In this document: positions 6,001-23,856 of the stretch, in pieces
Numbering within the stretch: position 1 is the first letter of the stretch
How the letters are laid out: each line of letters begins with the position of its first letter
From: a virus
Lineage: Duplodnaviria > Caudoviricetes
Reading direction: 5' to 3' (one strand)
Length of the DNA stretch: 60,040 bases
IMG/VR virus record: IMGVR_UViG_3300044825_000703
Coordinates: 1-60,040 of that record
The notes under the pieces: generated by a model
The model's database searches: none
Told to the model about the DNA's origin: nothing
What the model saw: only the letters and a program-made list of their open reading frames with translations
Translations under genes and position numbers: made by a program

Positions 6001-9000
6001 AGCAGCCCCGACTGAGGTGAAGCCGCCTGAGCAAGCGGGCATGTTTGAGGAAACCCCGGTTATTGAACCAGTCGCGGAGCAAGCAGTGGAAGCTCCGGCC
6101 CCAGAAGCCCCCGCTGTTGCGCCCGAGATCGAGAGACTACAAAAGACCTACGACGACGCAAAGGCGGCACTAGACGCACTCGGCCCAGAGCCTCCCAAGC
6201 CTCGTACCGAGCGTCAGTTCTTCGGCAAGAATGGCCGAGAAGGTGCGGATCCCGAGACCGTCCGTCGATACGACGAGGGAGTGAAGAAGTACAACTCGTG
6301 GAAGCGTAAGTACGGCAAGCTCAAGAAGGACGAGGTTGATGCGAGTAACGCCTTGTTCCGTGCAACACAACCCACGAAGGCACAGGTCAAAGAAGAAACC
6401 AAACTCGTTGAAGACACAACCAAGGCCGTCCTTGAAGCCAAGCTCAATGACTTCATGGTGGGCGACCAAGTAAGGTTTGGTAATACTCCCGGAGTCGTGA
6501 TTGGTCTTGAAGGCGACTACGTTCGCTTCCGTCCTGATGCAGCTCGCTCGCCCAAAGCGTATCAGCGAGTGCCCAAGACATCCCTCACGATGGTCGCTCG
6601 ACCCGATACAACCAGTGAGGTTTCGTATTCAAAAGGCCAGGACAGCAAGTTTGGAGAAGAAGCGGGTCAACTGAATGCCGATATGGGCGGCTTGATCCAG
6701 TTGCTTGGCGCAAACATGTATGCGTCCAACTTGGCCGACGTCACCGTCAAGGAGCTGCTGCAAAACGCCTTCGATGCGGTCAAAGGTGCTGTGTCTTCCA
6801 AAAAAGGACCAGCGCTGTACAAGACCGGATCTATTGAGATCAAAGTTGACTCCGGTACGAGAACGATCTCAATCAAAGACAACGCTCGTGGCATGACGCC
6901 AGAGATTGTCCGTGATGCGTTCTTTACTATCGCCGGGTCAGAGAAGTCTGATCTTGATCCTAGCGAGCGCAGCGGTGGTCTTGGTCTAGCCAAGATGGGC
7001 TTCATGCTTGGATCGGATCGGCTTCAGCTTGATACGGTTCGAGACGGAGTTCGTATCAAGGTTGATACAACGGCCAAAGACATTGCAAACAACAACTTCA
7101 AGATTGTTAAGTCGCCCGCTCCAAAGAAAGAACACGGCACTACAGTGACCGTTACGATTCCTGAAAACTACACCGATCCAAGGACCGGAGAAGCAAAACC
7201 GATCTGGTTTCCGTGGAGTGTTCGTAGCATTTCGCCTCTGACCAAACCGTTGATTGGCCCAGTGAAGGTTGACGTTGACATCAATGGTGACAAGCAAACC
7301 CTTCCGGTAGGGACCAACTTTCCAGAAGACAAATATCAATCCTTCAAAGCAAACTTTGATTGGGGTTCAGCCGACATATACTTTGGAATCGAACGTAAGT
7401 CAGATACTTGGCAGACAAACCATCAAGTTCTTTCAAGCGGCGTTTATCAGTTTGATCAAGAATTCACGCTGAACAAAGAAAAGATTCCATACGACATCAT
7501 TGTCAATGTAAAACCAAATGTCGATGCAAAACACCCCGACTATCCGTTTGAGAACAGTCGAGAGCGGTTTAAGGGTAGGCTGAAAAACGACATTGGTTCG
7601 TTGACCAATTATCTCGGCACGATTGCCCGTGGCTATGAGGCTGCTGGACTACAGGAGTCTTTCAAGGGAATCGTCTCCATGCCTCGTGTCGAGGCTGGCG
7701 CTGACATAGCAGGGATGGCGGATAAGCTCAAGAAGAGCTTTGGCACACAGGGCGCTCAAGCCCCGTCAGAACTCAAGCCGTTGCCTAAAGAAGTCACCAT
7801 CACGCCTACTGAGGTGCGAGATACCAGAACTCAACAGGTTTTGGTAGACACCCAAAAAGCAGCAGAAAAAGAGAAGGCGTCCACATTCAAGGGTGAAAAG
7901 GTCAAAGAGTCCAAGGACTTTATGATCGACCTGAAGCAAGATCCAAAACTACCAATCTTCCACAACAACACCAACGTAGACTTCGTTGAGGTTGGTAGGG
8001 ACTATGGCGACCCTGAGCAGTTCTTTGCTGAACTCGGGACGCTGATGGTTGAGATGAAAGAGGATCTTGCCAAGAGCGGCATCTACGGCTACGAGAAGCT
8101 GTCACCTGACAACCTGTTCTTTGCTGGCATCTCGATTGACAAGGACTACGGTGGCGTACACATCAAGGTTCCGTACAAGGCCGTCTTGATCAATCCGTTC
8201 TATGACTGGGGTGCAAGAACCCTGTTTGGCGTTCGAGGCAACATCTTGAACACGATGATCCATGAGATCGCCCATACGGGTTCGATGGATCACGGCGTGG
8301 CTCACAACGGCCAGATGATCAAGGTCGAGCAGTACCTGAACGACGAAGGCTTGATGGATTACTATCGTGACGCGATCCTGGATGTGCTGCGTCGCCACGA
8401 GTCAACATTCACTGCAATGAGGGATGCTTATGGACGATCTACAACAAAGAACACTGCAAAGTCTCTTGAGGATGTCCAGAAAGACGCCGCCGCAGCATCG
8501 GCTAGAGGAGATCGAGGCCGGGGTGCGGACGAGGCTGGGACTGTACCGGCAGGAGAAGGACAAGGAAGGGGCGAAGGTGTACGAGCAACTGCTGCCAGTC
8601 GTGCTGAAGGCGAAGTCGGCGGCCGACCTGGAGAAGCTGGTCGCGTAGAGCCTGCCGACCAAGCAGAGCGCGAGCGTGTTGACGAGCTCCTAGATGAGTT
8701 CAACCGTCCCAAGGTGACTGGCCGAGAGCTGGAGACGGTTAAGTCTAGGCTGATGCCCAGCACATCGTCTATCCGATCCACCTTCAAGGAGATGGTTGAT
8801 AACCCGTCCCAAGCGGTCAACATGATCTTCGGGCCGTTGAATCGAGGGATTGCTCAGGCTCGGAACTATCTGTTCTTCTCCGGGGCCGGACTGGAAGAAG
8901 CCGATGCCAAGCGGTATGCAAATCAGGTCAGGACCGCCAACGATGAGGCCACGGCTACTTTGGCCCTCGACAACATGCTCCACGGCAACGGTATTGCCGT

Positions 9001-11482
9001 TCAGTTCCTGATGCAGGGTGGGCTTCGGTACAACCCGGAAACCAAGCGTATCGAAGCGCATCAAGCTGATGGCAGTATGCTCGATGTCTACATAAATGAG
9101 CGTGCGCTGAAGAACAAGCTCGGGGATGAGCGAGGGGCCATGCTGGCCCAGGGTTACTTTGAAGCCAAACGTTCCAAGAACATTCGTGATGAGATGGCCC
9201 AATTAGCCGAGGAGATCGAGGTCCAAAAAGAAGCTCTCGATGACGCCCGTGATCGTCTGCGTGAGCTTAAGAAGGAGAAGGCTGCTGATAGTGCAATCGA
9301 CCGACAACAGAAGGTCGTGGACCGTCTGGCTGATGAGTACAACGAGACCAAGACACAGCTCGATGAAATCGTTCGGATCAACGAAGAAAAGGTGTTGATG
9401 TCTGACGAAGAGATCGAGGCGTTCATTGATCAGGACGCCGTGTATCCCGAGCTTAGAAACATGATGGATGCTTGGATGGCAACCAATCGGCGGCTGCTGG
9501 GCATGATGCGACAAGTTCGCATGATCAGTGAAAAACGCTATAAGCGGCTCATGTCGATCAAGGACTATGTGCCCTGGCAGCGAGTCCAAGATGACGACGT
9601 AGACATTCACTACGTGGGGAATCCTCGGTCGGCTACGAACATCACGAAGGAAAGGGCGTTCAAAAAGGGCAAGGTCGAGCGTGCTGTTGCTTATATCCCA
9701 GACAACATGACGGACAACATCATCCGTCTGACTCAGAGCGTCCTGCGTCAGTACGCCGCTTTAAGGATAGTGGATGAGTACGCCACAAGGGACCCAGAGA
9801 CCGGGAAGATCAAGACCTTTGCCAAGGCAGACAGGAATAAAGGCCGATTCGACTACATCTCTGACGGTCGTCGAGTGGTTGTTGAGGTCAAAGATCCGGT
9901 GATTGCTGAAGCGGTGTATGGCCGGGATTCGGTGGATCTTCGAGCCCCAGAAGCGATTGCTGCGGCCACAAACTTCATGCGCCGGGCCATCACAATTGAC
10001 CCGTTCTTCCAGATGTCTCAGGTCATCAAGGATGCTCCTACTGCGGCCATTGTGACTGGTGTACGGAATCCTTGGGCTTTGATGGGCAGTGTGATGACGT
10101 CCTTTGCTAAGACGGTCGTCAATGCAGACCCTGTGGCAGACATCCTGCGGGCCAACGGTATCGGTGGCTTCCAAGCCATCACGCGGACGCCTGAAGCAGC
10201 GGTGAAACGGAAGAAGGGTCTGGTGAATCGGTCGGTGGGTGCCGCGACTCTGGAGTTGATGGATCACATTGGGGATGCGTCCGACTTCGCAGCCCGTATT
10301 GCGGCCTACAAGCGAACAATGGCTGAGACGGGTGATGAGGCGCTTGCTCTGTATCGAGCAGCTAATGTGATCAACTTCAACCGGCTTGGTTCGTCTGGTG
10401 CGATCAGGACGTTCGTGACCTACGTCAACTTTGCCAATGCCTACCTCCAGTCGATTGATACTCTGTTCACGGCTCTGACTGCACGAGGCGCACGGGGACG
10501 AGATACCAAGAAAGCTCTGGGCATCATGGCGGCAACGGTAGCTCAGCTCACAGCTCTGACCCTGGCATATAGCTGGCTGGTCGGTGGAGATGATGAGTAC
10601 GAGAAGCTGGACGACGCGACCAAGGTTCGTAACTTCTTCATCCCGAAGTCGGTCACTGGAACCGATAGTGGAATCCTGATTCCGATCAACACATCGGCGG
10701 CGTTCATCTTTAAGGCGATGCCTGAGCTGACCTACAACATGTTTGCCAGCCAGGCTACCAAAACGCCGATGGATGCGACTCGGTACAAGAAGGCTGTATC
10801 GGAAGCAGCGGCGGATGCGTTCTTTGGTCCTGAGCCTGTTCCGAGTGCTATCAGGCCGATCATTGAGATCGCCATGAACCGTAGCTTCTTCACCGAGCGC
10901 CCCCTGACCCCGCGCGGAACGGAGACCCTTGAGAAGTTCCAGCAGTTCACGGATCAAACCTCTGAGCTCGGCAAGTTGCTCGGCCAGGCTGGTGGCTTGA
11001 GTCCTATCGAGTGGGATCACTTGATCCGAGGAACCACCGGTGTCGCCGGGATGCTGGCCCAATACGGCTCCAACATGATCGGTGAGTATCTGAACGTCCG
11101 ACCCGAATCAACGGCCAAGCAGTTGCCGGGTGTTGGGAGGTTCATCGCCCCCGAGATTGGTCGCGGTCCTGAAGCTTTGTTCTACGATCTCCATGAAAGG
11201 GTTCGTAAGGCGACAGCAACCTACAAGGACCTGGAAGCAACGGGTCAGTACGAAAAGGCCGAGAAGTTTGATTCTGAGAAGAACCTGCTCATCGACCTGT
11301 CCCGTGAGATGAACCGGACTGAATCTAAGCTCAAGAAGATCAACGCCGAGATCCGAATGCTGTCGAGGGGTCGGGAAGAAGGGACGGCCAAGGAACGTCG
11401 CAGGGAAATCACGGAGCTTCAGAGAGACAAGCAGGAGCTGCTCGACGGGATTGAGATGCTGAGGAAGGAAGCGGGTCTGTAA
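3074..11482 (+). CDS. Giant polyvalent protein, 2802 aa: ParB-like domain, GHKL ATPase, HEXXH zincin-like peptidase, C-terminal LPD38-like domain
   Basis: VISGRHR (~5125); ELLQNAFDA, DNARGM, GGLGLAK, GTTV (6750-7150); HEIAH (8261-8275); DDEYEKL...NFFIP...IEIAMNRSFF...SPIEWDHLIRG (10590-11030). Confidence 0.8.
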   Translation: MRFVPLDAAEQSVTQFRFVPLDQPAPAKEPQVIDRAPEEFPPGIASSSPMRLPRDFSIPVETPPVAGLQPVQETEPILPPEASISSFVKGREPELTEYTPTLMQRIAELLPSNRARALNEYIARQIARERGIPIEQVYTEAGGARPIFNPEGRPPVTAAVEAAEVVAKEIPEIPAGAATAALRAYRAGEIPVADQSWVDRAITAMNPERQGKPDPNYQAFQGLGPSIGFSLANLVASVVAGSAATTVTGGNPVAGVAAGMAASGTVAYRASKDEFLERVKKKLDKESTNLYGKPLGKDDWEAAKEEFDSAATQYGLWEAIPEAVSNAIFLKAFSGPAKGMSQSMLASVGQKAGALAAEQATETVTALGQNAAERKAKLTEQELSVADAFRQQFVQTLLTSGVMAGGMKGKELATDFYRTYVEPRVDPASALGRAIQADIEAVAFSPEAIQREAAFLMATGARPQGLAELARAVAIPPATPEEPEAPEAPEAPVVRAEPTLPEVTPEAPGRAEPTLETEPTVDGQAEPTLPAEEEPVVLRPTRRGPPVEEVIEDVPAIPGMPSIEEPSYVFTPIDGGVTPVAPTAETPPAEPLVTPTSAAAAVPVEPTVPTFVKAKETEPEPPNLEAQGLATVEVPLNQLSLSKDVPQFKLGATAKGVVEPLGGKFERTGVAPIQVWRRLDGSLEVISGRHRFDLAQRSGEKTIPAQIHDEAQGFTRDHAAVLDAELNIRDGQGKAKDYVNYFKASGIDRETAESRGLLARATGKRAYTIATQGSDELLAALRADAIPEEAAFYIALNAPNDSRIQAVGINAMNNGKTMNMAVNTMQAVQALAGEQGVTVDMFGLDDSAIREAEAMAKIASRKQRELQTRLSAITGASKNPALAKAEGIDIKDPEAVKRRIEELRQQKAAWENWQTNSDLIAEVRAERGTPPPELQLTGETEAEIRAREEAEQAGATEAEKKRQADLARDMFALEGEAAPTEVKPPEQAGMFEETPVIEPVAEQAVEAPAPEAPAVAPEIERLQKTYDDAKAALDALGPEPPKPRTERQFFGKNGREGADPETVRRYDEGVKKYNSWKRKYGKLKKDEVDASNALFRATQPTKAQVKEETKLVEDTTKAVLEAKLNDFMVGDQVRFGNTPGVVIGLEGDYVRFRPDAARSPKAYQRVPKTSLTMVARPDTTSEVSYSKGQDSKFGEEAGQLNADMGGLIQLLGANMYASNLADVTVKELLQNAFDAVKGAVSSKKGPALYKTGSIEIKVDSGTRTISIKDNARGMTPEIVRDAFFTIAGSEKSDLDPSERSGGLGLAKMGFMLGSDRLQLDTVRDGVRIKVDTTAKDIANNNFKIVKSPAPKKEHGTTVTVTIPENYTDPRTGEAKPIWFPWSVRSISPLTKPLIGPVKVDVDINGDKQTLPVGTNFPEDKYQSFKANFDWGSADIYFGIERKSDTWQTNHQVLSSGVYQFDQEFTLNKEKIPYDIIVNVKPNVDAKHPDYPFENSRERFKGRLKNDIGSLTNYLGTIARGYEAAGLQESFKGIVSMPRVEAGADIAGMADKLKKSFGTQGAQAPSELKPLPKEVTITPTEVRDTRTQQVLVDTQKAAEKEKASTFKGEKVKESKDFMIDLKQDPKLPIFHNNTNVDFVEVGRDYGDPEQFFAELGTLMVEMKEDLAKSGIYGYEKLSPDNLFFAGISIDKDYGGVHIKVPYKAVLINPFYDWGARTLFGVRGNILNTMIHEIAHTGSMDHGVAHNGQMIKVEQYLNDEGLMDYYRDAILDVLRRHESTFTAMRDAYGRSTTKNTAKSLEDVQKDAAAASARGDRGRGADEAGTVPAGEGQGRGEGVRATAASRAEGEVGGRPGEAGRVEPADQAERERVDELLDEFNRPKVTGRELETVKSRLMPSTSSIRSTFKEMVDNPSQAVNMIFGPLNRGIAQARNYLFFSGAGLEEADAKRYANQVRTANDEATATLALDNMLHGNGIAVQFLMQGGLRYNPETKRIEAHQADGSMLDVYINERALKNKLGDERGAMLAQGYFEAKRSKNIRDEMAQLAEEIEVQKEALDDARDRLRELKKEKAADSAIDRQQKVVDRLADEYNETKTQLDEIVRINEEKVLMSDEEIEAFIDQDAVYPELRNMMDAWMATNRRLLGMMRQVRMISEKRYKRLMSIKDYVPWQRVQDDDVDIHYVGNPRSATNITKERAFKKGKVERAVAYIPDNMTDNIIRLTQSVLRQYAALRIVDEYATRDPETGKIKTFAKADRNKGRFDYISDGRRVVVEVKDPVIAEAVYGRDSVDLRAPEAIAAATNFMRRAITIDPFFQMSQVIKDAPTAAIVTGVRNPWALMGSVMTSFAKTVVNADPVADILRANGIGGFQAITRTPEAAVKRKKGLVNRSVGAATLELMDHIGDASDFAARIAAYKRTMAETGDEALALYRAANVINFNRLGSSGAIRTFVTYVNFANAYLQSIDTLFTALTARGARGRDTKKALGIMAATVAQLTALTLAYSWLVGGDDEYEKLDDATKVRNFFIPKSVTGTDSGILIPINTSAAFIFKAMPELTYNMFASQATKTPMDATRYKKAVSEAAADAFFGPEPVPSAIRPIIEIAMNRSFFTERPLTPRGTETLEKFQQFTDQTSELGKLLGQAGGLSPIEWDHLIRGTTGVAGMLAQYGSNMIGEYLNVRPESTAKQLPGVGRFIAPEIGRGPEALFYDLHERVRKATATYKDLEATGQYEKAEKFDSEKNLLIDLSREMNRTESKLKKINAEIRMLSRGREEGTAKERRREITELQRDKQELLDGIEMLRKEAGL

Positions 11483-11507
11483 AAAAACGGAGGGTCCAGC
11501 CCTCCGT
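11481..11507 (-). terminator. Intrinsic terminator ending the leftward middle operon
   Basis: ACGGAGGG-CTGGA-CCCTCCGT followed by a T run on the - strand, at the point where the two operons converge. Confidence 0.8.
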
Positions 11508-11533
11508 AAGACCACACAGCACCCGTAACACGT

Positions 11534-11881
11534 TCATTCTATGGGCGTGATCACTACGGTGCAAGATCCGCCCTTCTGAACCTCTTGCCGGATGAGATGT
11601 AGGTCATCTATGTCTGAGTCATCCTCGAAGCATCCAGCGTGCTGAAGTGCGTCCAGAAGAGCCTTGGTCACGTTATCGAGGTCTCGTGTCCTACGGTCGG
11701 GCGGATAGAGCGCCACGAAAACGGCGATCTTGCCCGTCATTGTTTGATACCCAGCCTCGGCTACACGCTCACTCACTTCCCTCCTGAACTCCATCCCTTT
11801 CTTCCCGACAAACCTCCGCATACCTTTCGTCCCCCAGTAGTGATTTACGGATGGCGGGTAAGGAAGCGTAAGGGTGATCAT
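11534..11881 (-). CDS. rusA: RusA-family Holliday junction resolvase
   Basis: LPYPPSVNHYW...PPDRRTRDLDNVTKALLDAL...EDDSDI. Confidence 0.9.
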   Translation of the reverse strand: MITLTLPYPPSVNHYWGTKGMRRFVGKKGMEFRREVSERVAEAGYQTMTGKIAVFVALYPPDRRTRDLDNVTKALLDALQHAGCFEDDSDIDDLHLIRQEVQKGGSCTVVITPIE

Positions 11882-11955
11882 TGAAGATGCTCCGAAGTTC
11901 TCGCAGGGCGAGCTTGGTGGATTCTGGGTACGCTCCTGACAATTCCTGATGTCGT

Positions 11956-12786
11956 TCAAGCAGCCTGATCAAGTCGATCACTAACATAGTTCAGCTTCCT
12001 CAGCCTGCTCTTCAGGCTCTTGATCGCAGACAGGAGTTCGGCGTTACGGTTCTGAAGATAGTCACGAGACTCGGTAAGTGTCTTCACTTCCAGCTCAAGC
12101 TCAACAATCCTCTTCCTCATCTCTTCCATACGCTCTTCGAGGTCGATCTTCTCGAACTCCGAACCATCGTATTGGCCGAGAGCGATCTTGTCCTTCAAAA
12201 CCTCGTTCTCACTGGCCAGGCTGTTAATCGTGTCTAGGAGCTCGTTTCCTTCCTGGGAAGGGGTAGGTACCACCTCGGTCTTTTCAACGTCTGGTAGAGG
12301 CTCTGAGATGGCCTTGGCTACCTCCTCGCGCTGCTTCTTTGGGATGCTGGCTGTGACGGCCACCATGCGCTTCTTGAGTCGGCCGATGGCGACGTCTGAG
12401 CAGTTGAGGTGCTTGGCGATCTGACGGTTGGACCATCCTTTCGTGACGGGGTGTTGCTCCATCTTCCGGAGGATGTTGATCTTGTCGTCCAAGGACAGGG
12501 ATAGGCCGCGCCGAGTGTTGGCAGCGAAGGCGAAGAGCCGCGCTTCTTCGAGCGTTCCCGTTTTGACTGTGGCCCCGATCTCAGTTGCGCCCGCCATTCG
12601 AGCGGCGAGAACCCGGTGGAATCCATCGGCCAGCCAGACGTCCTTCCCATCATTGAAGACAACGATGTCCTCGAAAGGAACACCGGTGAGCATCATCTGT
12701 GCAAAGTCTTCGACCTGCTCTTGGTCGATCTTCTTCCGTACCTGTGTATCGCCATCCAGCCGGATGATGGCCACATTAATCAGCAT
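11956..12786 (-). CDS. ParB/Srx-like N-terminal domain protein with HTH and coiled coil
   Basis: WLADGFHRV motif; WSNRQIAKHLNCS HTH. Confidence 0.75.
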   Translation of the reverse strand: MLINVAIIRLDGDTQVRKKIDQEQVEDFAQMMLTGVPFEDIVVFNDGKDVWLADGFHRVLAARMAGATEIGATVKTGTLEEARLFAFAANTRRGLSLSLDDKINILRKMEQHPVTKGWSNRQIAKHLNCSDVAIGRLKKRMVAVTASIPKKQREEVAKAISEPLPDVEKTEVVPTPSQEGNELLDTINSLASENEVLKDKIALGQYDGSEFEKIDLEERMEEMRKRIVELELEVKTLTESRDYLQNRNAELLSAIKSLKSRLRKLNYVSDRLDQAA

Positions 12787-13469
12787 CGCTACTCCTTGAA
12801 AGTGTCGCCCGTCCAAAGCGGGTCGTCTGGGAACAGTACGTCAAAAAGGTCGAGTTCCACTATAGGGGTAATCCCGTAGTGAACAAAATAAAGTTTTTGC
12901 TTGCCTTTTAAACGCAAAACGGAATGACGGCCAACGACGCAGTTACTGTAAGTCACGTTGCGTCGCCTTTGCTTTTGCCCTCGCAACCATTGGAAGTGAC
13001 CTGTCGTGTGTTGGAAGTGACGTTTGGCCTTGCGTGTTCGCGGAATGTAAGTTTTTGCTCGCTTTTCCGCTGGCCCGCTTCCTCTTCGGCCAAACTCGGG
13101 CAAAAGTCAGCCTAAGGGTGAGTGTTAGTTTATAACATCCCACCACCCGACTTTTTCCCGGTAAACCCGGTATGCGTCTCAGGGCAACTTATAACGCACT
13201 CAGGAGCTTTTCACCGTTGCCGGTGCCTACCACGGCCCCCTGCCAGTCCGCACTCCCCGATGCCATTCCGCCCCGGATGCGTCCTGAAACTCACCGCTTG
13301 CGCCTGGTTCTTCTGTGCGCTTACCTTGACAGCCAGAACGTTGAAGGATCCGACGCTTTCCGGCCTACCCCGACTCTGCGGCATCCACCGCTGCGGGTTC
13401 CTCCAGTAGCCCCCTACCATACCTAGCCCGATAGACTCTGCCAAGACCCAGCTACCTGCTGGGGAGGTT

Positions 13470-13742
13470 TTACTTCATAGGCTCATCCACCAACTTGCCG
13501 CGCTCAATACCGACTCGGTGTTTGATCTCGACGGCGTAATAGGTGAAGTCAAGATGGCCGTGGCTTACAGCGTTGGCTGCAAACTCACGGCACTTCTCGA
13601 TAGCCGTATCCATGCTTTCATGAAGGTACTTGAACTTTGCCGAGTGCCCAGAAGGAGAACGCATAAACACTGCGTACTTGGGATCGGTCGCTTCGTGCAG
13701 TTGATGCACGGCCTTCTTACGAGAACGAAATGCGCCTTCCAT
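13470..13742 (-). CDS. Hypothetical protein, 90 aa, downstream of the structured leader
   Basis: AAGGA RBS before ATG; clean ORF. Confidence 0.6.
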   Translation of the reverse strand: MEGAFRSRKKAVHQLHEATDPKYAVFMRSPSGHSAKFKYLHESMDTAIEKCREFAANAVSHGHLDFTYYAVEIKHRVGIERGKLVDEPMK

Positions 13743-13773
13743 GACTGTCCTTTGTTAGGGCGTGGAAGAGGCG

Positions 13774-13906
13774 AAAAAAAACCTTCTAGAATGACCCCGG
13801 AGAGAGAACCCTTTCGGGCTACCCCATTCGGGGTCGGAGTCGTTCTAGAAGGCTCTTAGTCAGTCTCTCTCACTAACTATGCTTCGCGTTGGTTTCGACA
13901 CCAACG
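13774..13906 (-). ncRNA. Structured leader/attenuator RNA ending in a terminator
   Basis: Hairpins CGTTGG/CCAACG and TAGTTAGT/ACTGACTA; long stem CCTTCTAGAA/TTCTAGAAGG enclosing two tetraloop hairpins, then T8. Confidence 0.75.
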
Positions 13907-13912
13907 GGATGA

Positions 13913-13941
13913 ATCATACCCACCCATCAACGACCCGTCAA
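13913..13941 (-). promoter_or_regulatory. Sigma70-type promoter
   Basis: TTGACG-N17-TATGAT. Confidence 0.8.
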
Positions 13942-13950
13942 GATGGGGAC

Positions 13951-14047
13951 AAAAAACTTGAAATTTAGAAAACGCCTCTGTAAGTCATTGAAAACAAACC
14001 ACAAAAGAGTGCAACATTGTTGCACCCCTACGACGAGTGTGGTTATT
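13951..14047 (+). repeat. 97-bp conserved element, copy A (inverted relative to 30146-30242)
   Basis: Gapless alignment with identical blocks of 17, 10, 25 and 7 bp; contains palindrome GTGCAACA-T-TGTTGCAC. Confidence 0.9.
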
Positions 14048-14625
14048 TAGACTTCATCCTTGAAGGCGACGAGGGCGATTTCGTACTGCTTCTGCCGCTC
14101 TTTGAGGTGCATTAGGGCTGGTCCGTTCACGATGCGGGTGACCTTAGTCATGTCGTCTGCGACCTCGTTGCAACCGTTCTCGTGCCAGAACCATGCGGCC
14201 GAGAGTGCCGCGTACTCCGGGGTTTTGAGGAGCTTCGGCTCGGCTACGAAGTCCACACCGAGGGCGTCACTACAGGCTTTGTAGTTTTTCTCCCAAGTGA
14301 GCTGGATCATGCCTCTGCCGTGATAGCCGTTGTAGAGCTTCTCGCTCAGGGCTAGGGGGTTCTCAACATACGGCGCTGCGGCCTTCGGGTCTCCGTTGAA
14401 GACACGCTTGAAGATGTTTGCCAGGCGATTCGCGTTCCGGTAGAAGAGGTTCTCCTCCATCCATCTGAGGCCACCGGTCTCGATGGTGATGGTGGCGATG
14501 AATGCGGCCTTCTGCTCCGGCGTGGAGATATTGAACCGTTCCATAGCGGCATTGAGCGGCTCAACGTACTTCTCGCAGGCCCACTGTGATGCGCCTGTGG
14601 CTTGCATCAGTTGCTCAAGCGTCAT
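14047..14625 (-). CDS. Endolysin, glycoside hydrolase family 19-like
   Basis: IETGGL...ENLFY, YHGRGMIQLTWEKNY, SAAWFW, VTRIVNG. Confidence 0.9.
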   Translation of the reverse strand: MTLEQLMQATGASQWACEKYVEPLNAAMERFNISTPEQKAAFIATITIETGGLRWMEENLFYRNANRLANIFKRVFNGDPKAAAPYVENPLALSEKLYNGYHGRGMIQLTWEKNYKACSDALGVDFVAEPKLLKTPEYAALSAAWFWHENGCNEVADDMTKVTRIVNGPALMHLKERQKQYEIALVAFKDEV

Positions 14626-15038
14626 GATTTGTTCCTGATGTTGAAGATCTTCTCTACCGTCCTGCCTCCAAAGTACGCCAGCATGATGAGCTGACCCCAT
14701 TCGCCCAGCAGCTTGACGTAAGACTCGTTGACGCTCCATCCAAACGCAGAGGCGGAGGCAAACGTGAAGTAGGCACACAGGATCGCTATGAGGGTCATGG
14801 GACGGATGTTTTTAGATAGCCAGCTATCCGACCCCATGTCTGACTGCCAGCGCTCCGTGGTGTTCTTTTCCTCGACCTCGAAGAGCTTGGTTTCGTTGGC
14901 AATCCGCGCCAGCTCGCCCGCTTGATGAAGCTGCTCAAGCTCGGCCTGCGCTTTGGCCTTGGCTTCCGGGTCTGGTAGGACCTTATCAAGAATCTTCCCT
15001 GCGAACGGTAGCAAGGCGGTCAGTGCAGGTAGCATCAT
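14622..15038 (-). CDS. Holin (3TM-type)
   Basis: SDSWLSKNIRP plus TM segments and YFGGRTVEK; adjacent to the endolysin. Confidence 0.8.
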   Translation of the reverse strand: MMLPALTALLPFAGKILDKVLPDPEAKAKAQAELEQLHQAGELARIANETKLFEVEEKNTTERWQSDMGSDSWLSKNIRPMTLIAILCAYFTFASASAFGWSVNESYVKLLGEWGQLIMLAYFGGRTVEKIFNIRNKS

Positions 15039-15053
15039 GCGCTCCTTCAAATG

Positions 15054-15117
15054 AAAACCCCGGCCGAAGCCGGGGCGAGGATGACCACTGCCAGGAGGTC
15101 ATGCCGAAGGGGTCGGC
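15054..15117 (-). ncRNA. Small RNA of three hairpins with an antisense seed loop UCCUGGCAGU
   Basis: Own promoter upstream; stems GCCGA/UCGGC and AUGACC/GGUCAU; terminator CCCCGGC-UUCG-GCCGGGG-UUUU. Confidence 0.8.
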
Positions 15118-15123
15118 CCGTCA

Positions 15124-15152
15124 ACTCTATAGAACCAGTCCATCACTGTCAA
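15124..15152 (-). promoter_or_regulatory. Sigma70 promoter for the sRNA
   Basis: TTGACA-N17-TAGAGT. Confidence 0.75.
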
Positions 15153-15450
15153 CAGGCTTCATAGAGACAACGAGGTGACCCTGCTCCAGGAGTCGCCTAA
15201 GTGTTCGCGCGTTCATCCTCTCGGCAAATTCGCGTTTTTCGTATCTGCTCATTTGGCGTCCCTGGTCGTACTCGGCGTGGCACTGGTGACACAGGTGCAT
15301 GATCGTGGCGTCAGAGGCTTTGATGCCCATGCCTTTGCCGTGATTTGAATGTGCGCTGACAACGGTGCCGTCACGGGTGCCACAGTTTACGCACGACTGA
15401 CCTTCGGCCAGTTGCAAGAGCTTAGGGTTTCTGTATGTTGTTGGCTTCAT
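15127..15450 (-). CDS. DUF1364/DUF968-like zinc-binding (His-Me finger) protein
   Basis: CVNCG...AHSNHGKGMGIKASD...LCHQCHAEYD. Confidence 0.75.
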   Translation of the reverse strand: MKPTTYRNPKLLQLAEGQSCVNCGTRDGTVVSAHSNHGKGMGIKASDATIMHLCHQCHAEYDQGRQMSRYEKREFAERMNARTLRRLLEQGHLVVSMKPVDSDGLVL

Positions 15451-16111
15451 GGTGAACCTTGTAGTCGTGAAGTACCAGTCCATTCTTTTTGAAGTCACCG
15501 ACTCGACACGGCTTCACCCAGACGCGACGGCCTTTGACAACTCGCCAGTGTCCTCGGCGCTCATGCGCTCTCGGGCTGGCATGGGTTCCCGTAGAAACGC
15601 CACTTTGTTTGGGGTTGCGAGCTTTGACAGTAACGGTGCGCCACTCAAAGGACGGCGCTTTTCCTTTGGCGAGTTTGCGTTGATTGGTGAATGTTTTACG
15701 GACCTCCGTTTTGTATGCAGTCATGTCGTTGGTATCAAGACGTGAGACTAGCAATTGGATGACACCAACAATCTTAAGATTTTCTTCTCGGCTACCGACT
15801 GTGTTGTCGCGCCGATACACGCCTAGGTTGCCTTCTGGAGTTAGATTGCATATCAACGCCGGAAGTCGAACAAACTTGGGGGTTAGGGCAAAGCCTGCCG
15901 CAACGATTTGATTTGTGCCCGAGGATGCTGCAAAGATTACAAACGGCCCGCTTAGTCCTCGGCCAACGATATTGATGTTGTCAAATGGAAGGTGCGTGAT
16001 AAGTTCCGGATCAAGTTCGAACTCAAAAGTGTCCAGGCTTCCAACATCAAACCAGGTTCCCTTGTGCGGCTCGGGAACCAGCTTCCACATTGATTGAATG
16101 AGTGGTGTCAT
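15422..16111 (-). CDS. Conserved phage hypothetical protein, 229 aa
   Basis: C-terminal HASPRAHERRGHWR...VWVKPCRVG motif typical of phage proteins. Confidence 0.65.
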   Translation of the reverse strand: MTPLIQSMWKLVPEPHKGTWFDVGSLDTFEFELDPELITHLPFDNINIVGRGLSGPFVIFAASSGTNQIVAAGFALTPKFVRLPALICNLTPEGNLGVYRRDNTVGSREENLKIVGVIQLLVSRLDTNDMTAYKTEVRKTFTNQRKLAKGKAPSFEWRTVTVKARNPKQSGVSTGTHASPRAHERRGHWRVVKGRRVWVKPCRVGDFKKNGLVLHDYKVHHEANNIQKP

Positions 16112-16141
16112 GCTTCCTCCTACCAGGGCGCGTCGCCTACA

Positions 16142-16684
16142 TCAGACGATTGCCGAAAACCAGCTTTGCTGGGTGATCGTCCGCTTCGGTGGTTTAGTGG
16201 GACGTGTGAGGTTCTGGGCATAGCCATCAGTTCCTCGACGGTCGGGAAAGGCCACATGGGGGTTGCGCCGCCACGAGACGGGATCGTTGGGTGTGGCTGC
16301 TTTGTTTCGGATGAGGTAGCTTTTTGCTGTGAGTTCATTGAGTGCCTTTTTGATGGTTGCAGCGTGAAGGTTGAGGATTTTGGCTAAATCGGCCGCGGTG
16401 CGGGACAGGAAGTCTTTGGCGAAGATTTCGAATAGCGCTTGCTCGGTACTATTCCAGCGCTCCTTGGTGTCCTCGCCGGGTCCAAAGGCGTAGACTGCCG
16501 AGTATTGGCTGTCATGGAAGTCCCACCACACGATGTGAGCTAGCCCTTCCTTGTGCATGGCCTCGCAGAAGAGGTGCACGCCGTCACGACCGAGGCCGGT
16601 CACTTCAATCAGCTCCATGGCGCTGCGGGGCTGCTCCATCAGGGCCTTGAGTAGCTTGGGTAGCGTTGTAGCGGAGAGTCTCAC
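16142..16684 (-). CDS. Tandem winged-helix DNA-binding protein
   Basis: SAMELIEVTGL and TAADLAKILNLHAATIKKAL; start uncertain (GTG overlapping the upstream stop). Confidence 0.55.
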   Translation of the reverse strand: MRLSATTLPKLLKALMEQPRSAMELIEVTGLGRDGVHLFCEAMHKEGLAHIVWWDFHDSQYSAVYAFGPGEDTKERWNSTEQALFEIFAKDFLSRTAADLAKILNLHAATIKKALNELTAKSYLIRNKAATPNDPVSWRRNPHVAFPDRRGTDGYAQNLTRPTKPPKRTITQQSWFSAIV

Positions 16685-16890
16685 TGTCGCTTTCCTCCGG
16701 GGTTGATGGGGTCGAACTGGTCCATATTTAGACTCATGATCGGAATCTCGTAAGAGCCGAATGTCAGTCCGCATCCGGTGCAAGTCCTCCTGCGATAGGT
16801 GAAACCGTATCGTGTATCCATCCTCGTCTCGCGGACCTCGGACCCGGTGCCTTGTGGGCAGTCGCATTCTGGGTGATCAAGTCGCTTCAT
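16681..16890 (-). CDS. NrdR N-terminal-like zinc ribbon protein
   Basis: SEVRETR...YRRRTCTGCGLTFGSYE. Confidence 0.65.
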   Translation of the reverse strand: MKRLDHPECDCPQGTGSEVRETRMDTRYGFTYRRRTCTGCGLTFGSYEIPIMSLNMDQFDPINPGGKRQ

Positions 16891-19595
16891 TCTTCTCCTT
16901 CAGCTTTGCTTCGATAGTTTCAAGCCCGTTAATCCAAGCATCGAGCCTACTGTGCAGCTCGTCTCGTGTTGCTTGTCCAATAGTACGTCCGTCGGAGATC
17001 TTCAATTGGTTGTTTATATGCTCCTCAAACAACGGTCCTTTTTCAAATGTGATGTAAGACAAATCTTTTGCAGTCTTAATAGTGTATTCATGCCCTTCAA
17101 GGCTGATTCCCATTTCCGTATTCATCGGTTCTTCTCCTTCAGTTTTGCTTCAATCTGATCAAATAACTTTCTCGTATATCCTTTGATCGGAGTCTCGCCC
17201 CACGGTCCGATGATCTCTTTGATTTCGTCGTCAGCCAGTCCGACCCATTGGCGCGGTGCGGTGTAAAACGGAACGCCTTCGCTGCTATCACGGTTCTGTA
17301 CCCACGCATCAAAATGCGGCGCGTACTGAAAATATCCAAACGGCTCCTGCTTCTCTGCCTGTTCGATAGCGGTGCGGAGGGCGGTTACAGCACCAATGGC
17401 TTTCTGCATTGCGGTGTCATAGTCGCCAGAAACCTGACCCAATCCCATTTCCAACGCCTCCAGCGCCTGCTTCATTGCGTCAATGCTCATGCTTTGCATT
17501 CCTTATAAATTCTTTCCCACCGTTCTGGATGCCGATCAACGTCCGCAGGTCGATGCGTTATGACAACCCCCTCGATTTGATTGTGCATCCAACCGACCGG
17601 CTCAACTGGTAAGTAATTCTTACCAGTTGGATCCTGCTTCTCTGCCTGTTCGATGGCGGTGCGCCCTGCGCTCAGGGCTTCAAGCATCCTCGCCGTGTGC
17701 GGAATGTTGAACAGCTTGAGGTCGGCCTCGACAGCCTCGACCATCTGCTTCATTGCTTCAATGCTCATCCTCTTCTCCTCCACAAAAAGCTCAGTGTCAT
17801 ACCGTCGATCACGGCTCGTTTGAACCGCGTCTCAGGTGCCCAGATCAGATAGCCGACCGCTATACCTGCTGCGTAGACTAGTAGGGTTTCAGTCATCTCT
17901 CACCTTTGCTTAAAACCAAGACGCCGTATCCCGAGTTCGATCAGCATGGCTGCGTCCTCAAGACCGTTGTCTGAACTGCTGAATCCAGTCTGCCATTCGC
18001 CACCGATCCGCTTGCCAATCAGCCCAACAGAAATCAGTTCTCCGTTCTTGGCGTCCTCCAGCCACTGCTCAAGCATTGCAATCGCGTCGGAGTTGTCGGG
18101 CGTAGTGGCTTTGATAAATGGTTTGATGTTGTCGGTCATTTCTCACCTCTTGTTCGGATGGCATAAGCAATTGTGTGCCCGATCAACCAGTTCTCTGCCA
18201 CCTTCGCACACGCCTCACGTTCATCCATTTCCGCCAAATTGACAAGCCAGTACAAAAAGTCAATGTTGTCCATGATGGTTTTTTCGTGATGACCAAATCC
18301 AGTTATCTTTCCATCCTCAGCAGAAAGCCTTATAGCTCTGGATGCCAAATCCCTGATGCGTCGTTCGAGGTGCTCTTGCAACCCCTCACGGTGTTCATTT
18401 CCGCTGTCCCACCAAACATCAATGCCAGCCTCTCGCGCCATCTTGATGATGTCATCTCGTGTCATTTCTCACCCCTTGCTTCAAGCATGGCGTCTGCCAT
18501 TACCCAGCTTGCCTCTGCTAGTGTTTTTACCGGCTCTTCTTGGCGTTCCATAAATCGACGAGCATCGCGGTCAAGACCCGCAAGCAAGCCCTGCATCGCC
18601 TTCGCCGCAAAATAATCGCGCAGCGTCATGCCTTGATATGCCGTCCCCGTTGGAAACGCTGGGCCTCCTGTTGGTTTACTCATCTCTCACCCCTTGCTTT
18701 CTTCAACGCCGCCCGCGCTCGTGTAAACGTCGCATCAAGATGCTCCCATCCCGTATCAGTCGCATCGACGATCTCCTTGAGTGCTTCGTATAGATCAGGC
18801 GCGGCTGCGATCAGACGGGCGTCGGCTGCTTTGACATCGCCGGTCGTGTAGTTCACGTTTTCTCCGATCCTCACGAAGCGGAGCTTTTTCCCCCACATAG
18901 ACGGCCTGTGCTTCCACGGCCCCGGTGTGTAGTTCATTTGCGCCTCCAAGTGTCAAGTAATACTTGACGGTTGATCCAGCGTTTTTTCCTTGCACCATTT
19001 ACAGATAAAACCCGTTCGAGTAGCAAACGCAGACACGCCATATCTGTTTTTGCACTTACGGCATACGCGGGTTGCCTTGGATCTAAAATGTGCGCTCATT
19101 GGTTTCCCCTTGCTCTGATGGCTTCGGCGATGGCTGCATACTTTTCTTCAGTGGTATGCCCATCCCACGGTTTTGTGTAAGGCGGCAAATGTGCAAACAT
19201 CTGCTCATCGTCTGAGTGGTAGTGCCATGAAGCCTGCCCCCAAGGGAAGTCAATGTAAACACACCCGTGCCACGCCTCGTCCCAGCCCTCAATGGCGGTC
19301 TTGGCCTTGCCTGATGGAAACAACGTGGACAACAAAGCCACCAATTGGTTGCGCTCTTTGTAGACTGAATCGCAGTTCATGCTTCACCCCTTGCTCGGAT
19401 GGCTTTTGCGGCTTCTTCCTTGGTAATCCAGTTTCCATTGCGCTCAAAATTTTCGACCAACTTCGCACACGCCTCACGTTCGGCAGCCGCGACAAGGGCG
19501 GCGAAGCGTTCCATTGCAGCCCAATACATCCAGTCGGATTCAGGCTCATCAATTCCAGCCTCACGCGCCATCCGGATGATGTCGTCTTGTGTCAT
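16877..19595 (-). other. Array of about 11 short, mostly translationally coupled hypothetical genes (e.g. 16877-17125, 17122-17490, 17487-17768, 17900-18139, 18136-18465, 18462-18683, 18680-18937, 19096-19380, 19377-19595)
   Basis: ATGA overlaps; shared N- and C-terminal peptide blocks; 19096-19380 carries a PWDGHT (WDGH-type) motif. Confidence 0.75.
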
Positions 19596-20230
19596 TCCCC
19601 ATCTCCAAAGAACGCGCTCATCGTGATCGGAGCGACCGTACGAAGCTCCCTCAATACCGACTCGGCTAGCAATCGGTGTTCCTTCTGTGTGGTCGGATCT
19701 AACCTCTGCTTGAGGTAAAAGATCCACGAGCGCATGTTGCCGTTCATGTACATCCTGCTCGGCGTCAGACCCTCCGGCAACAAAGCTCTTGCTTGTTCCT
19801 TGGCGATGCCAGCAAGGAGGGCAGACCTGTAATACGCGTTGGCCTGCTCGTACACCTCGCGCTGCAATCGCTCCCATCGGTCTCGCAAGACTTGGTCGTT
19901 TGTCTCAATGCTGTTCTGACGGTTTGTCGGATCTTGTAGTCGGGCCTCCCGTAGAGCGACCGGCGTCAACTGCGACGCATCCGCATATCTCTGTGAGAAC
20001 TCCTGAAATGAAAACGATCTGTGCCGCAGGATCTGCCTCCCGATGTCTCGTGTGGTCTCGATCTCAAGGCAGACATTTGCCATCTCAAACGGGCTGACGT
20101 GACCATGCTCCATCAGATATCGCATAAGTCCTGTCTTGCCTGATGATTGGTTATCAGGGTTCGAGACCCTTGCGATATACAAGAGCTGCTGATCAAGATC
20201 AGGCGTCGCCCACTGAATCTTTACGTTCAT
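19592..20230 (-). CDS. thyX: FAD-dependent thymidylate synthase
   Basis: GHVSPFE and QILRHRSFSFQEFSQRY (RHRX7S) motifs. Confidence 0.95.
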   Translation of the reverse strand: MNVKIQWATPDLDQQLLYIARVSNPDNQSSGKTGLMRYLMEHGHVSPFEMANVCLEIETTRDIGRQILRHRSFSFQEFSQRYADASQLTPVALREARLQDPTNRQNSIETNDQVLRDRWERLQREVYEQANAYYRSALLAGIAKEQARALLPEGLTPSRMYMNGNMRSWIFYLKQRLDPTTQKEHRLLAESVLRELRTVAPITMSAFFGDGE

Positions 20231-20528
20231 CTCTCAGCTCCTTCATGTAGTACTTCATCTCAACAATCCGGGCGCACTCACGCAGCTTCCCGATGTTCGT
20301 CCGCTTCATTACTTCTATTGCAATCGCAACGAAGGTCTCGACCTCGGCCCGCTCGTCGTCGCCCCACCCGATCAGCGTCGCAATACAAGCCTTCAGACGC
20401 TCGTCTTTCATCCGCTCGACCTTCTCGACCAGATAGGACATATCGTCTTCGGGCAGTGCGGCCCTCATCTGAAGCAGCTCACGCATGCGCCGAGCTTGCT
20501 CTTCGACGAAGTGTTTGTCGGGTTTCAT
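20199..20528 (-). CDS. Hypothetical protein
   Basis: ATGA-coupled to the MazG gene. Confidence 0.55.
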   Translation of the reverse strand: MKPDKHFVEEQARRMRELLQMRAALPEDDMSYLVEKVERMKDERLKACIATLIGWGDDERAEVETFVAIAIEVMKRTNIGKLRECARIVEMKYYMKELRDERKDSVGDA

Positions 20529-20830
20529 TCTTCTTTCACGAACACGCCGTTGGGCATGAGGAACCCTTTGCGGTCCTTGATTTCGTTGTAGGCCCCTTCC
20601 AGGCACTTCACGATGTCTAGGCCCGAGAGTTCACAGAAGTTGATCAGGCAGACCAGAACGTCGCCCACAGCGTCGGCGGTGGCACCGATGTCCTTTTTAG
20701 CCAAAGCATCGGCCAGTTCTCCCATCTCAGATGCGGCCTTCAGGTACTGGGCCGTTGCCGTGCTGTTCGGGATGATCTGCCGGTCTCGGCTCCACTTGAT
20801 CACGCGCACGTGCAGTTCATCAAAGGTCAT
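20525..20830 (-). CDS. mazG: MazG-like nucleoside triphosphate pyrophosphohydrolase
   Basis: SEMGELADA...DAVGDVLVCL...AYNEIKDRKG. Confidence 0.85.
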   Translation of the reverse strand: MTFDELHVRVIKWSRDRQIIPNSTATAQYLKAASEMGELADALAKKDIGATADAVGDVLVCLINFCELSGLDIVKCLEGAYNEIKDRKGFLMPNGVFVKEE

Positions 20831-21053
20831 TGCAAAGCTCCTCTTCGATCCGTTGAATGTCTTTGTCTGTCATTTTTGCTTCGAGCCACGGTGCGGGGCG
20901 GCCACGTTGATCAAGCACAGTGAATGACTCCACTTCAACCCAGCCGTGATAATCCCAGTCACTCGGTGCGTTTCGGCTATACGAACCCGTTTGGACATGG
21001 ACCTGTGCCTCAATCAGGCAGGGAATCCCGGCGATTCGCGTTTCTATGATCAT
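20820..21053 (-). CDS. Conserved phage hypothetical protein
   Basis: RIAGIPC...APSDWDYHG...LDQRGRPAPWLE. Confidence 0.6.
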   Translation of the reverse strand: MIIETRIAGIPCLIEAQVHVQTGSYSRNAPSDWDYHGWVEVESFTVLDQRGRPAPWLEAKMTDKDIQRIEEELCNDL

Positions 21054-21055
21054 CT

Positions 21056-21295
21056 TCAGTCTCCAAGAAGGTTGCCGATGTTTGTTTTGTAGCTCGGCTC
21101 TACCAGCTCGCGGATTTCAGGAGGGATCTTAGGTAGCGGATACCAGCCTACGAACCATTTGTCTTTCCCGTCCCACCATCCGGTGCTCGCAATTCCAGCT
21201 TTGTTCAAGAGCAATACCTTTGGTCCAGTCGGGCAGTCATCCATGCTTCGGAAGAAGAGACCTGGATCTGTGATGGCGTCCTTGTTGGTGGTCAT
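21056..21295 (-). CDS. Hypothetical protein (DUF551-like)
   Basis: CPTGPKVLLL...WYPLPKIP. Confidence 0.5.
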   Translation of the reverse strand: MTTNKDAITDPGLFFRSMDDCPTGPKVLLLNKAGIASTGWWDGKDKWFVGWYPLPKIPPEIRELVEPSYKTNIGNLLGD

Positions 21296-21328
21296 AAGGA
21301 TCTCCTGGAGGGGTTTCCCCCTCCGTGT

Positions 21329-21553
21329 TTACGCTGCGATTGCGGCCGGTGCGGATACGGCCACTGCCACCTTGGAGGCATTCTTCCTGCCAGGCGGACG
21401 GCCACGGCGTTTTGCGGGCTTGATTGCTACCGGCTTGGGTTTGGCAACCGCCGGGCTTTCCACCATATCCACGATTGATCGGTCGGTGTAATCGCGCAGT
21501 GCTTTGACGATGATGGGTAGCAGCTCAGAATCAATTTTCAATGTGACTTTCAT
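21329..21553 (-). CDS. Small DNA-binding protein with AT-hook
   Basis: KRRGRPPGRK motif. Confidence 0.55.
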   Translation of the reverse strand: MKVTLKIDSELLPIIVKALRDYTDRSIVDMVESPAVAKPKPVAIKPAKRRGRPPGRKNASKVAVAVSAPAAIAA

Positions 21554-23578: not shown

Positions 23579-23587
23579 GTGAGTCTC

Positions 23588-23854: not shown

Positions 23855-23856
23855 GC

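Follow-up and report, generated by a model that had tools for sequence, protein, structure and literature searches.

We find, on the minus strand of the genome of an uncultured freshwater phage without a cultured relative seen (IMG/VR virus record IMGVR_UViG_3300044825_000703), a gene for a predicted small RNA (sRNA) whose central loop is complementary to the ribosome-binding regions of five genes of the same phage. The window analysed here is the whole of this record (60,040 bp, 97% complete), and the sRNA gene, promoter included, occupies positions 15054-15152, 10-18 kb from its putative targets and in other operons. Computation on the window and on related genomes establishes the anatomy of the gene, its conservation, its complementarity to start regions, and the co-variation of loop and targets between lineages. 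The explanation that we favour, and consider probable, is that the gene encodes a trans-acting base-pairing sRNA which blocks translation of the phage's own genes.

A predicted sRNA gene with its own promoter and terminator

The gene opens with a sigma70-type promoter (15124-15152, minus strand), in which TTGACA (15152-15147) and TAGAGT (15129-15124) are separated by a 17-nt spacer, and which is the best (10/12) of six sigma70-type matches in 11400-31000. Its -10 element overlaps the TAG stop codon of the upstream gene (15127-15498), which matches YbcO, DUF968 and phrog_131 (HNH endonuclease). The predicted RNA of 64 nt (15117-15054) starts 7 bases after the -10 element and folds into three hairpins (minimum free energy -32.5 kcal/mol, z -3.27, with 1 of 200 shuffled sequences as good). 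These are a 5' hairpin with the C-rich loop CCCCT (15103-15117), a seed hairpin (15081-15102) in which the stem ATGACC/GGTCAT encloses the loop TCCTGGCAGT (15096-15087), and, after a short CCTC linker, an intrinsic terminator (15054-15076) with an 8-pair G+C-rich stem (hairpin 15076-15057), a TTCG loop and a TTTT run. This is the top-ranked terminator-like site in 11400-31000. An initial annotation, made from the letters of the window, had proposed the TTGACA-N17-TAGAGT promoter at 15152-15124 and an RNA of about 64 nt, and both its sequence and its coordinates proved exact.

Within the seed loop, CCTCC is the complement of Shine-Dalgarno sites of the GGAGG type, and TGGCAGTG that of the motif CACTGCCA, considered below. 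The seed core is predicted to be accessible (mean probability of being unpaired 0.84, against 0.38 for the remaining RNA), and only 3 of 1000 shuffled-flank controls formed as good a stem around it. Trans-encoded sRNAs are recognised as short non-coding transcripts bounded by their own promoter and a Rho-independent terminator, and this arrangement is present here; the only open reading frame (ORF) inside the RNA, of 38 aa from the ATG at 15102, has no Shine-Dalgarno site, and its ATG is missing in one relative (L093). A plus-strand gene antisense to the sRNA (CACTGCCA-GGAGG-tc-ATG, 15086-15103) was considered and rejected, given its 2-nt spacing, an unconserved ORF, and the same absence of the ATG in L093.

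No known RNA family accounts for the element. Infernal searches of the whole window against Rfam gave no match at the gathering score, and at E<=10 the region 14950-15250 gave five matches far below threshold, none of them to C4. Among cultured phages, the sole blastn match to the sRNA region covers 31 nt over the terminator in Caulobacter phage CcrBL9, where it is unannotated.

Complementary sites at the starts of phage genes

The motif CACTGCCA, complement of the middle loop, occurs nine times over both strands of the window, compared with 2.96 +/- 1.91 expected, and is thus enriched, as the initial annotation had anticipated. Seven copies lie on the minus strand, five of which end 11, 11, 1, 10 and 10 nt upstream of ATG codons opening ORFs of 297, 102, 58, 53 and 65 aa, and these are the five gene starts which that annotation had singled out. 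The other two minus-strand copies (51409 and 58162) lie opposite plus-strand genes, while the plus-strand copies correspond to the sRNA gene itself (15086) and to a stretch antisense to a minus-strand ORF (21362). By a rough estimate, about 1.5% of the strand lies at most 20 nt upstream of minus-strand starts, and five of seven copies at such positions would be far beyond chance.

The first target region (25694-25716, minus strand) reads CCACTGCCA-ac-GGAG-tcaac-ATG and precedes the first gene of a long leftward operon, whose 297-aa product is a PD-(D/E)XK exonuclease according to Pfam and PHROGs matches. Complementarity at this site is retained in all 12 of the pairs of 5' untranslated region (UTR) and seed that we compared (8-13 nt), and also on L283, a contig from a metagenome-assembled genome (MAG; 10 nt). 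The promoter of the operon (25724-25752, minus strand; TTGACA 25752-25747, 17-nt spacer, CACCAT 25729-25724), which a consensus scan missed, is so placed that the mRNA would begin roughly with the first letter of CCACTGCCA. The second target (33086-33107, minus strand; CCACTGCCA-act-GGAG-ttc-ATG) precedes a 65-aa gene, the first of the leftward early operon, and ranks 2 of 177 start regions in duplex energy. In L092, the nearest relative with an early region, its homologue carries CCACTGCTA, a G.U variant, behind TTGACA-N17-TATTCT. The sites at the first genes of both leftward operons (25708 and 33099), which the initial annotation had counted among the targets, are both kept in L092.

Three further targets, all on the minus strand, lie inside the early operon. 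That of the 53-aa gene (32257-32277; CACTGCCA-c-GAGG-aaacc-ATG) stands behind a G+C-rich hairpin, and its L092 homologue is without the motif. That of the 58-aa gene (31956-31967; GGAG-CACTGCCA-a-ATG) lies in the end of a possible 48-aa upstream ORF with an ATGA overlap; the motif is missing from its homologue in L092, while the homologues in G002 and G003 match the seed over 15 nt (one of them a G.U) and 10 nt, respectively. That of the 102-aa gene (31710-31731; CACTGCCA-aa-GGGG-atcac-ATG) stands behind a terminator-like hairpin at 31774-31747. The four small target products have protein relatives in related phages (1, 7, 10 and 1 matches). A 142-aa ORF covering the 32270 site (31955-32383) had no matches and was rejected as probably not a gene.

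Several features near these sites deserve mention in their own right. A G+C-rich hairpin and a shared GGGCG(C/T)G...TTGCG(C/T)C stretch precede the targets at 31724 and 32270 (31747-31790 and 32278-32330, minus strand), and a similar cassette precedes a 12-nt target in G008 (about 3120-3178); these elements may attenuate transcription within the operon, or may be processed so that new 5' ends arise beside the sRNA target. The CCCCTT of loop 1 in the window sRNA is complementary to AAGGGG beside CACTGCCA at 31724, which would allow a two-loop contact of the right polarity. At 21362-21384 (minus strand), the 3' end of ORF 21329-21673 reads CCTCC-aagg-TGGCAGTG(G) in mRNA sense, a second seed-like copy within the exonuclease operon transcript, which may be due to chance or may be an internal cis-pairing element; in the near-identical contig L082 the TGGCAGTGG part of this copy is kept and CCTCC is changed to CTTCC. 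Finally, a conserved block abuts the -35 element of the exonuclease promoter (25753-25775; L100-L161), being atgggtacaacctg-like in most relatives and catgggaacaatgtg in the window. This block may belong to the promoter as an upstream element, bind a regulator, or mark where the divergent gene begins.

A putative sRNA family in related uncultured phages

Since the lysis cassette is mosaic, homologues of the sRNA gene were sought around exonuclease relatives; 80 of the 322 detected, with identities between 100% and 66%, were retrieved. By eye, most of these 80 share a TTGACA-N17-(cacaat/cataat-like) promoter, followed after about 7 nt by a short conserved UTR leading into the Shine-Dalgarno site; examples of this UTR include cTACTGCTAGGAG, ccACTGCTAGGAG, CCACTAGGAG and ATCGCTAGGAGA. 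In relatives, 3-9 kb downstream and on the same strand, we find a promoter, a hairpin with the reverse complement of the UTR in its loop, and a terminator. Thirteen such homologues were collected (57-108 nt), with a 14th on the MAG contig L283, and all 13 possess a TTGACA-like -35 element, a -10 element at 16-18 nt spacing, and a terminator. The phages that carry the module are uncultured freshwater phages and apparently virulent. Its neighbours differ among relatives: in those denoted G001-G009 it closes the exonuclease operon at the 3' end and is followed by ParB-like, helicase and primase genes.

As in the window, the seed cores of the homologues are predicted to be mostly unpaired (probabilities of 0.63-0.92, against 0.34-0.54 for the rest of the RNA). 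A 14-nt seed, CCTCCTAGCAGTGG, is identical in six homologues (L093, G001, L144, G002, G006 and L197) with different flanks, and a stem of 6-10 bp encloses the seed in all 11 homologues tested, where 1-58 of 1000 shuffled flanks were as good. The sequences of these stems vary by lineage (ATGACC/GGTCAT, CCATGAA/TTCATGG, GTCCTA/TAGGAC, GTCCGTG/CATGGAC).

Exact scans of IMG/VR yielded no match to the 22-nt window hairpin and 82 stretches matching the 14-nt seed of the relatives; of the 80 listed, 12 have a promoter/terminator context and the rest are coding DNA. With each of two other seed patterns we obtained 8 stretches, 2 of them true. A pattern search allowing 2 mismatches in five records performed no better than its reversed-pattern control.

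Two observations concern additional elements of the family. Each homologue contains, by eye, a second C/U-rich loop or single-stranded stretch (CCCCT, CCCTC, CTCTCC, CCTCCT, TCCTCGC, TCCCTCCTC). On L283, at about 13745-13900, roughly 200 nt past the sRNA gene, a second promoter, a CCTCCTAG stretch and a terminator may represent a tandem sRNA gene.

Loop and target change together

The initial annotation had proposed co-variation of loop and UTR motif in related phages as a check. We regard this as the decisive computational test, and its positive outcome supports the interpretation offered there. In the window type, the loop TGGCAGTGG accompanies the UTR CCACTGCCA, and in the majority of relatives TAGCAGTGG accompanies (C/T)ACTGCTAGGAG. 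In the lineage of G003 and G009, TGC has been lost from both partners (loop CCTAGTGG, UTR CCACTAGGAG), and in the G005 lineage TCTCCTAGCG is found with CGCTAGGAGA. The joint changes are thus of three kinds: a C/G pair in the window and L087 (CTGCCA with TGGCAG) that is replaced elsewhere by U/A (CTGCTA with TAGCAG), the loss of TGC from both partners, and the change seen in G005 (CGCUAGGAGA with UCUCCUAGCG). When the longest exact complementarity was computed for 12 exonuclease-operon UTRs against 12 seeds, the diagonal sum was 119, compared with a permutation mean of 96.2 (sd 5.3), and only 2 of 20,000 permutations reached it. These natural compensatory changes across uncultured phages provide ready-made variants of both seed and target.

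A scan of eight full or partial genomes, window included, for exact matches of at least 8 nt to the complement of each genome's own seed extends the relation beyond the exonuclease. In all eight, the longest or joint-longest match outside the sRNA gene lies directly upstream of a start codon. Matches at starts measure 11 and 11 nt in G001 (both behind sigma70-type promoters), 11, 10, 10 and 10 nt in G005, 12, 10 and 9 nt in G008, 11 nt in G006, 10 nt in G003, 9 nt in G009, and 9, 9, 8, 8 and 8 nt in the window, while G002 has two of 9 nt and one of 15 nt with a single G.U. Four targets recur: the gene that directly follows the exonuclease promoter, the one that opens an early operon, the counterpart of the window's 58-aa gene, and a ParB-like gene. 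Targets occur on either DNA strand and are always sense to their gene; the sRNA gene, in every case seen, holds its copy antisense to the direction in which it is itself transcribed. Three sites (the first early gene of L092, the 58-aa gene of G002, and the G001-type exonuclease UTR) are imperfect only by a U opposite a G, a combination that still pairs in RNA.

These data bear on three alternative explanations. The simplest is chance, whereby a start-enriched 8-mer happens to complement the loop of a terminator-proximal leader. Matches of 8-9 nt are indeed short, 1 of 100 shuffled sequences reached nine copies of the motif, and the duplex energy ranking is unremarkable. However, five of the seven minus-strand copies lie at starts, and 12 or more further phage records show the same relation in a different set of letters; the comparative data thus already disfavour this account, which we find hardly credible.

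A second alternative is that the motif is a duplex DNA operator recognised by one of the phage's proteins, for which the LexA-type (70 aa) and sigma70-region-4-type (105 aa) products described below would be candidates, with the copy in the sRNA gene being one more operator. The phage encodes small DNA-binding proteins, the motif lies at about +1 of the promoter at 25708 and 33099, and its version in relatives is near-palindromic around CTAG (CTGCTAGGAG against its reverse complement CTCCTAGCAG, 8/10); moreover, sites co-varying with protein specificity would give the same sequence pattern. Yet the sites track start codons rather than promoters, and some are intra-operon and promoterless (the exonuclease of G002, the ParB-like genes of G002, G005, G006 and G008, and window site 31960). 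The match always includes or abuts the Shine-Dalgarno site, its orientation is fixed (sense at targets, antisense in the sRNA gene), the sRNA-gene copy sits in a hairpin loop on stems of differing sequence, some departures are G.U-compatible, and the window version is not palindromic. We therefore regard an operator as very unlikely.

Thirdly, the sRNA may be real and directed mainly at host mRNAs or at translation generally, the phage matches being secondary. The CCUCC core, together with the second C/U-rich loop seen by eye in each homologue, would fit many Shine-Dalgarno sites, and there is precedent in phage sRNAs, which, in the excerpt of a recent review, often act on host genes, e.g. PreS, StxS and DicF (PMC12197685). 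Nevertheless, a host-directed seed would not need a phage-specific extension that co-varies with phage UTRs, and we consider this explanation highly improbable.

Proposed mechanism and points against it

From the sequences we infer that the RNA is expressed, that it represses its targets, that this repression is timed, and that it is linked to lysis in the window phage. The hairpin loop would present a CCUCC core, which presumably resembles the 3' end of 16S rRNA, joined to a phage-specific extension of about 7 nt. This loop would pair with the 5' UTR and Shine-Dalgarno site of the first genes of the early and exonuclease (DNA-metabolism) operons and, in the window, also with three internal early genes. 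The duplex would occupy the Shine-Dalgarno site together with the bases immediately preceding it, close to or at the mRNA 5' end. The 30S subunit would thereby be excluded from target starts, giving translational repression, possibly followed by mRNA decay. In relatives the sRNA terminator would also end the exonuclease operon, so that the product may feed back on the first gene of that operon and on the early genes; as it accumulates, early and middle genes could be shut off with a delay or brought under negative feedback. The position of the gene at the 3' end of the exonuclease operon in relatives makes such delayed shut-off or feedback the likeliest logic. In the window phage, read-through of the terminator probably supplies the lysis transcript as well.

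A more far-reaching proposal is that these RNAs constitute a family, with a CCUCC core and a lineage 'address' of about 7 nt, that outcompetes ribosomes, sets the early-to-late switch, and provides superinfection exclusion with heteroimmunity. The idea of type-specific exclusion stems from the co-evolution of address and targets in discrete types: a resident sRNA would switch off early genes in any superinfecting phage that shares its type, and not in one of another type, which would amount to RNA-based heteroimmunity among lytic phages. The family would then be an RNA counterpart of protein translational repressors. We put this forward tentatively, and consider it doubtful as a whole.

Several observations weigh against translational repression by this sRNA. 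Uninterrupted pairing in the window extends over no more than 8-9 nt, and 1-3 unpaired bases separate it from the pairing with the Shine-Dalgarno site; the five targets rank 2, 9, 19, 28 and 63 of 177 candidate start regions in duplex energy, and this ranking, like a genome-wide energy scan, is noisy in such G+C-rich DNA. Three of the five targets lack the motif in L092, where it is found only at the homologues of 33099 and 25708. The UTRs of G002, G008 and L139 (3 of 12) fit a foreign seed 1-2 bases better than their own, and that of the window fits the L087 seed by one base more than its own. Furthermore, the genomes are related, and the co-variation therefore amounts to about three or four independent events rather than twelve. 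In another 20 exonuclease loci, each continuing for 5 kb or more past the gene, we found 4 promoter-terminator candidates (3 distinct), none with a clear match of at least 9 nt, the best being 8 nt in L112; five of these loci have a window-type or G001-type UTR (L082, L084, L085, L127) or are too short for the expected position. A fixed-column test of seed-stem covariation in an ungapped alignment was likewise negative (59% of cells paired, with 184 of 500 shuffles as high), because the stems stand in different registers; support for the hairpin comes from per-sequence folds and is weaker than the seed-target argument. None of the RNA runs searched for the sRNA stretch was listed as containing the sequence. 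Lastly, the promoters of the sRNA and of its targets look equally constitutive, and the repression model leaves the timing logic unexplained: would the targets not be silent from the start?

The lysis-gene neighbourhood

A three-transmembrane holin gene (14622-15038, minus strand; PF11351, phrog_3427) starts 15 nt after the T-run of the sRNA terminator and is followed by a GH19-type endolysin gene (within 14047-14778, minus strand; PF00182, phrog_181). A consensus scan found no other promoter-like site between 15124 and the holin start, so that transcription of the lysis genes in the window phage probably depends on read-through of the sRNA terminator, and the sRNA is probably also the leader of the holin-endolysin transcript.

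This layout raises the possibility that the element is solely a cis-acting leader or attenuator of the lysis genes, read through late in infection, with the short RNA a by-product and its complementarity functionless. The terminator so close before the holin, the lack of another promoter-like site, and the bracketing of holin and endolysin by a second terminator-like site (14029-14005) are all in keeping with such a leader, as is the upstream gene, since genes of the YbcO/DUF968/HNH type are found in lambdoid nin regions. Against it, the module precedes ParB-like, helicase and primase genes rather than lysis genes in G001-G009, and none of the best 80 of 597 holin relatives carries it upstream (by eye). 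No Q-like antiterminator was recognised adjacent to the sRNA, the YbcO-like gene and the next two genes upstream giving no Q-family match in Pfam or PHROGs. An attenuator, moreover, needs no conserved loop that co-varies with distant start regions. As a complete explanation the leader is consequently unlikely; as an added role in the window phage, compatible with trans-acting repression, attenuation is likely.

Comparison with known regulatory RNAs

By mechanism, the closest known system is the c4 RNA of phages P1 and P7 (immI). In c4 the complementary sequences sit in two loops, and the RNA is processed from an operon leader, whereas the window RNA has its own promoter and terminator; its targets are several and in different operons, while c4 has one downstream target in the same transcript. 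Nor did we find the immunity context of the C4 family, whose members lie in the leader of the operon under their control, upstream of an antirepressor, in temperate phages or plasmid prophages: no antirepressor, integrase or lysogeny context was found. A ParB-like gene is present. The initial annotation had described the RNA as analogous to P1 C4 and P4 CI RNA and yet distinct from them, and Infernal agrees in that the window contains no covariance-model match to the Rfam model C4, which we take to cover P1/P7 c4 and P4 CI. The likeness lies in a phage-encoded, trans-acting short RNA whose loop pairs around a ribosome-binding site to block translation, and in loops and targets that differ together between related phages, as in the heteroimmunity of P1 and P7 (both from the excerpt of PMC12197685).

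By position, the lambda 6S RNA and StxS, short PR'-tR' transcripts of lambdoid and Shiga-toxin phages, are closest, having the layout of a constitutive-looking promoter and an immediate terminator just upstream of lysis genes, a likeness that holds for the window phage and not for G001-G009. StxS has been shown to be a trans-acting base-pairing regulator of host rpoS and of stx1B (PMC7547250, in excerpt). It belongs to temperate phages under a Q antiterminator, unlike the present case, in which no Q was recognised and the putative targets are the phage's own early and middle genes. P22 sar and the lambda OOP and aQ RNAs are likewise short phage RNAs that lower the expression of a phage regulatory gene by pairing (PMC12197685, in excerpt), but they are encoded in cis and are fully complementary to an overlapping gene, whereas the window sRNA is 10-18 kb away with a match of 8-13 nt.

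Two further comparisons concern regulators of other kinds. T4 RegA is a protein repressor that shuts off numerous early mRNAs by occupying the places where their translation starts; it resembles the proposed system in that one product acts at many early starts, and differs in being a protein rather than relying on RNA-RNA pairing. The bacterial sRNAs RsaE/RoxS and RNAIII use C-rich loops to pair with Shine-Dalgarno sites, and other bacterial sRNAs derive from operon 3' ends. The proposed phage sRNAs would resemble them in their C/U-rich loops directed at Shine-Dalgarno sequences and in standing, with an internal promoter, where an operon ends; the bacterial sRNAs are host-encoded and unrelated in sequence to the window sRNA, with no family match.

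Known phage sRNAs come mostly from temperate coliphages, their targets being either a single phage gene in cis or genes of the host, according to the excerpt of the 2025 review of phage sRNAs (PMC12197685). Neither that excerpt nor our literature searches yielded an sRNA acting in trans on the start sites of several operons in a virulent phage. If confirmed, the sRNA described here would add a layer of RNA control to the timing of gene expression in lytic phages, and would indicate that metagenomic sequence suffices for discovering regulators of this sort.

Genome layout and lifestyle

Around the sRNA gene, the minus strand is organised into two operons: an early one, made up of small genes and running from about 33.1 to 30.4 kb, and a long one that begins with the exonuclease (25.7 kb) and continues through a methyltransferase, ThyX and the YbcO-like gene up to the sRNA. 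After the sRNA follow the holin, the endolysin, a ParB-like gene and RusA, with a strong terminator at 11.5 kb. The replication genes of the window lie on the opposite strand compared with those of relatives.

Cultured phages offer little by way of comparison: the exonuclease is at most 40% identical to any in INPHARED records, among which no cultured relative was seen, and a megablast search of 13000-17000 against cultured phages gave no match. A tyrosine integrase (PF00589) was not found in the phage, in a search that did not extend to serine recombinases, and no integrated relative occurs among 185,579 species genomes, where the five relatives present are short MAG contigs from discordant phyla. 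Given the lack of both a tyrosine integrase and integrated relatives, the phage is probably virulent. Of the roles that the initial annotation had offered, dormancy control is accordingly unlikely, while the position at the operon 3' end in relatives suggests feedback or timed shut-off. The five MAG contigs (L283-L287) are labelled Microbacteriaceae, Bacteroidetes and Gammaproteobacteria and are probably mis-binned phage DNA, and consequently give no clue to the host.

Several other genes of the window are of separate interest. The helicase (25765-28308, plus strand) and the large terminase (34359-36854, plus strand) are much longer than the versions in relatives (the helicase has 847 aa, compared with about 495 aa in G001-G009), and both translations contain, by eye, intein-like stretches with homing-endonuclease inserts. 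A protein of 2802 aa (3074-11482, plus strand), with an LPD38 domain and a GHKL-type ATPase domain, is kept at 50-61% identity and lengths of 2,900-4,000 aa in G002, G003, G006, G008 and G009. Two small proteins are candidate transcription regulators of this phage group, namely a 105-aa protein with a sigma70 region-4 fold signature (29802-30119, minus strand), which has 23 tblastn matches in the fetched loci, and a 70-aa protein with a LexA-type DNA-binding domain (34154-34366, plus strand).

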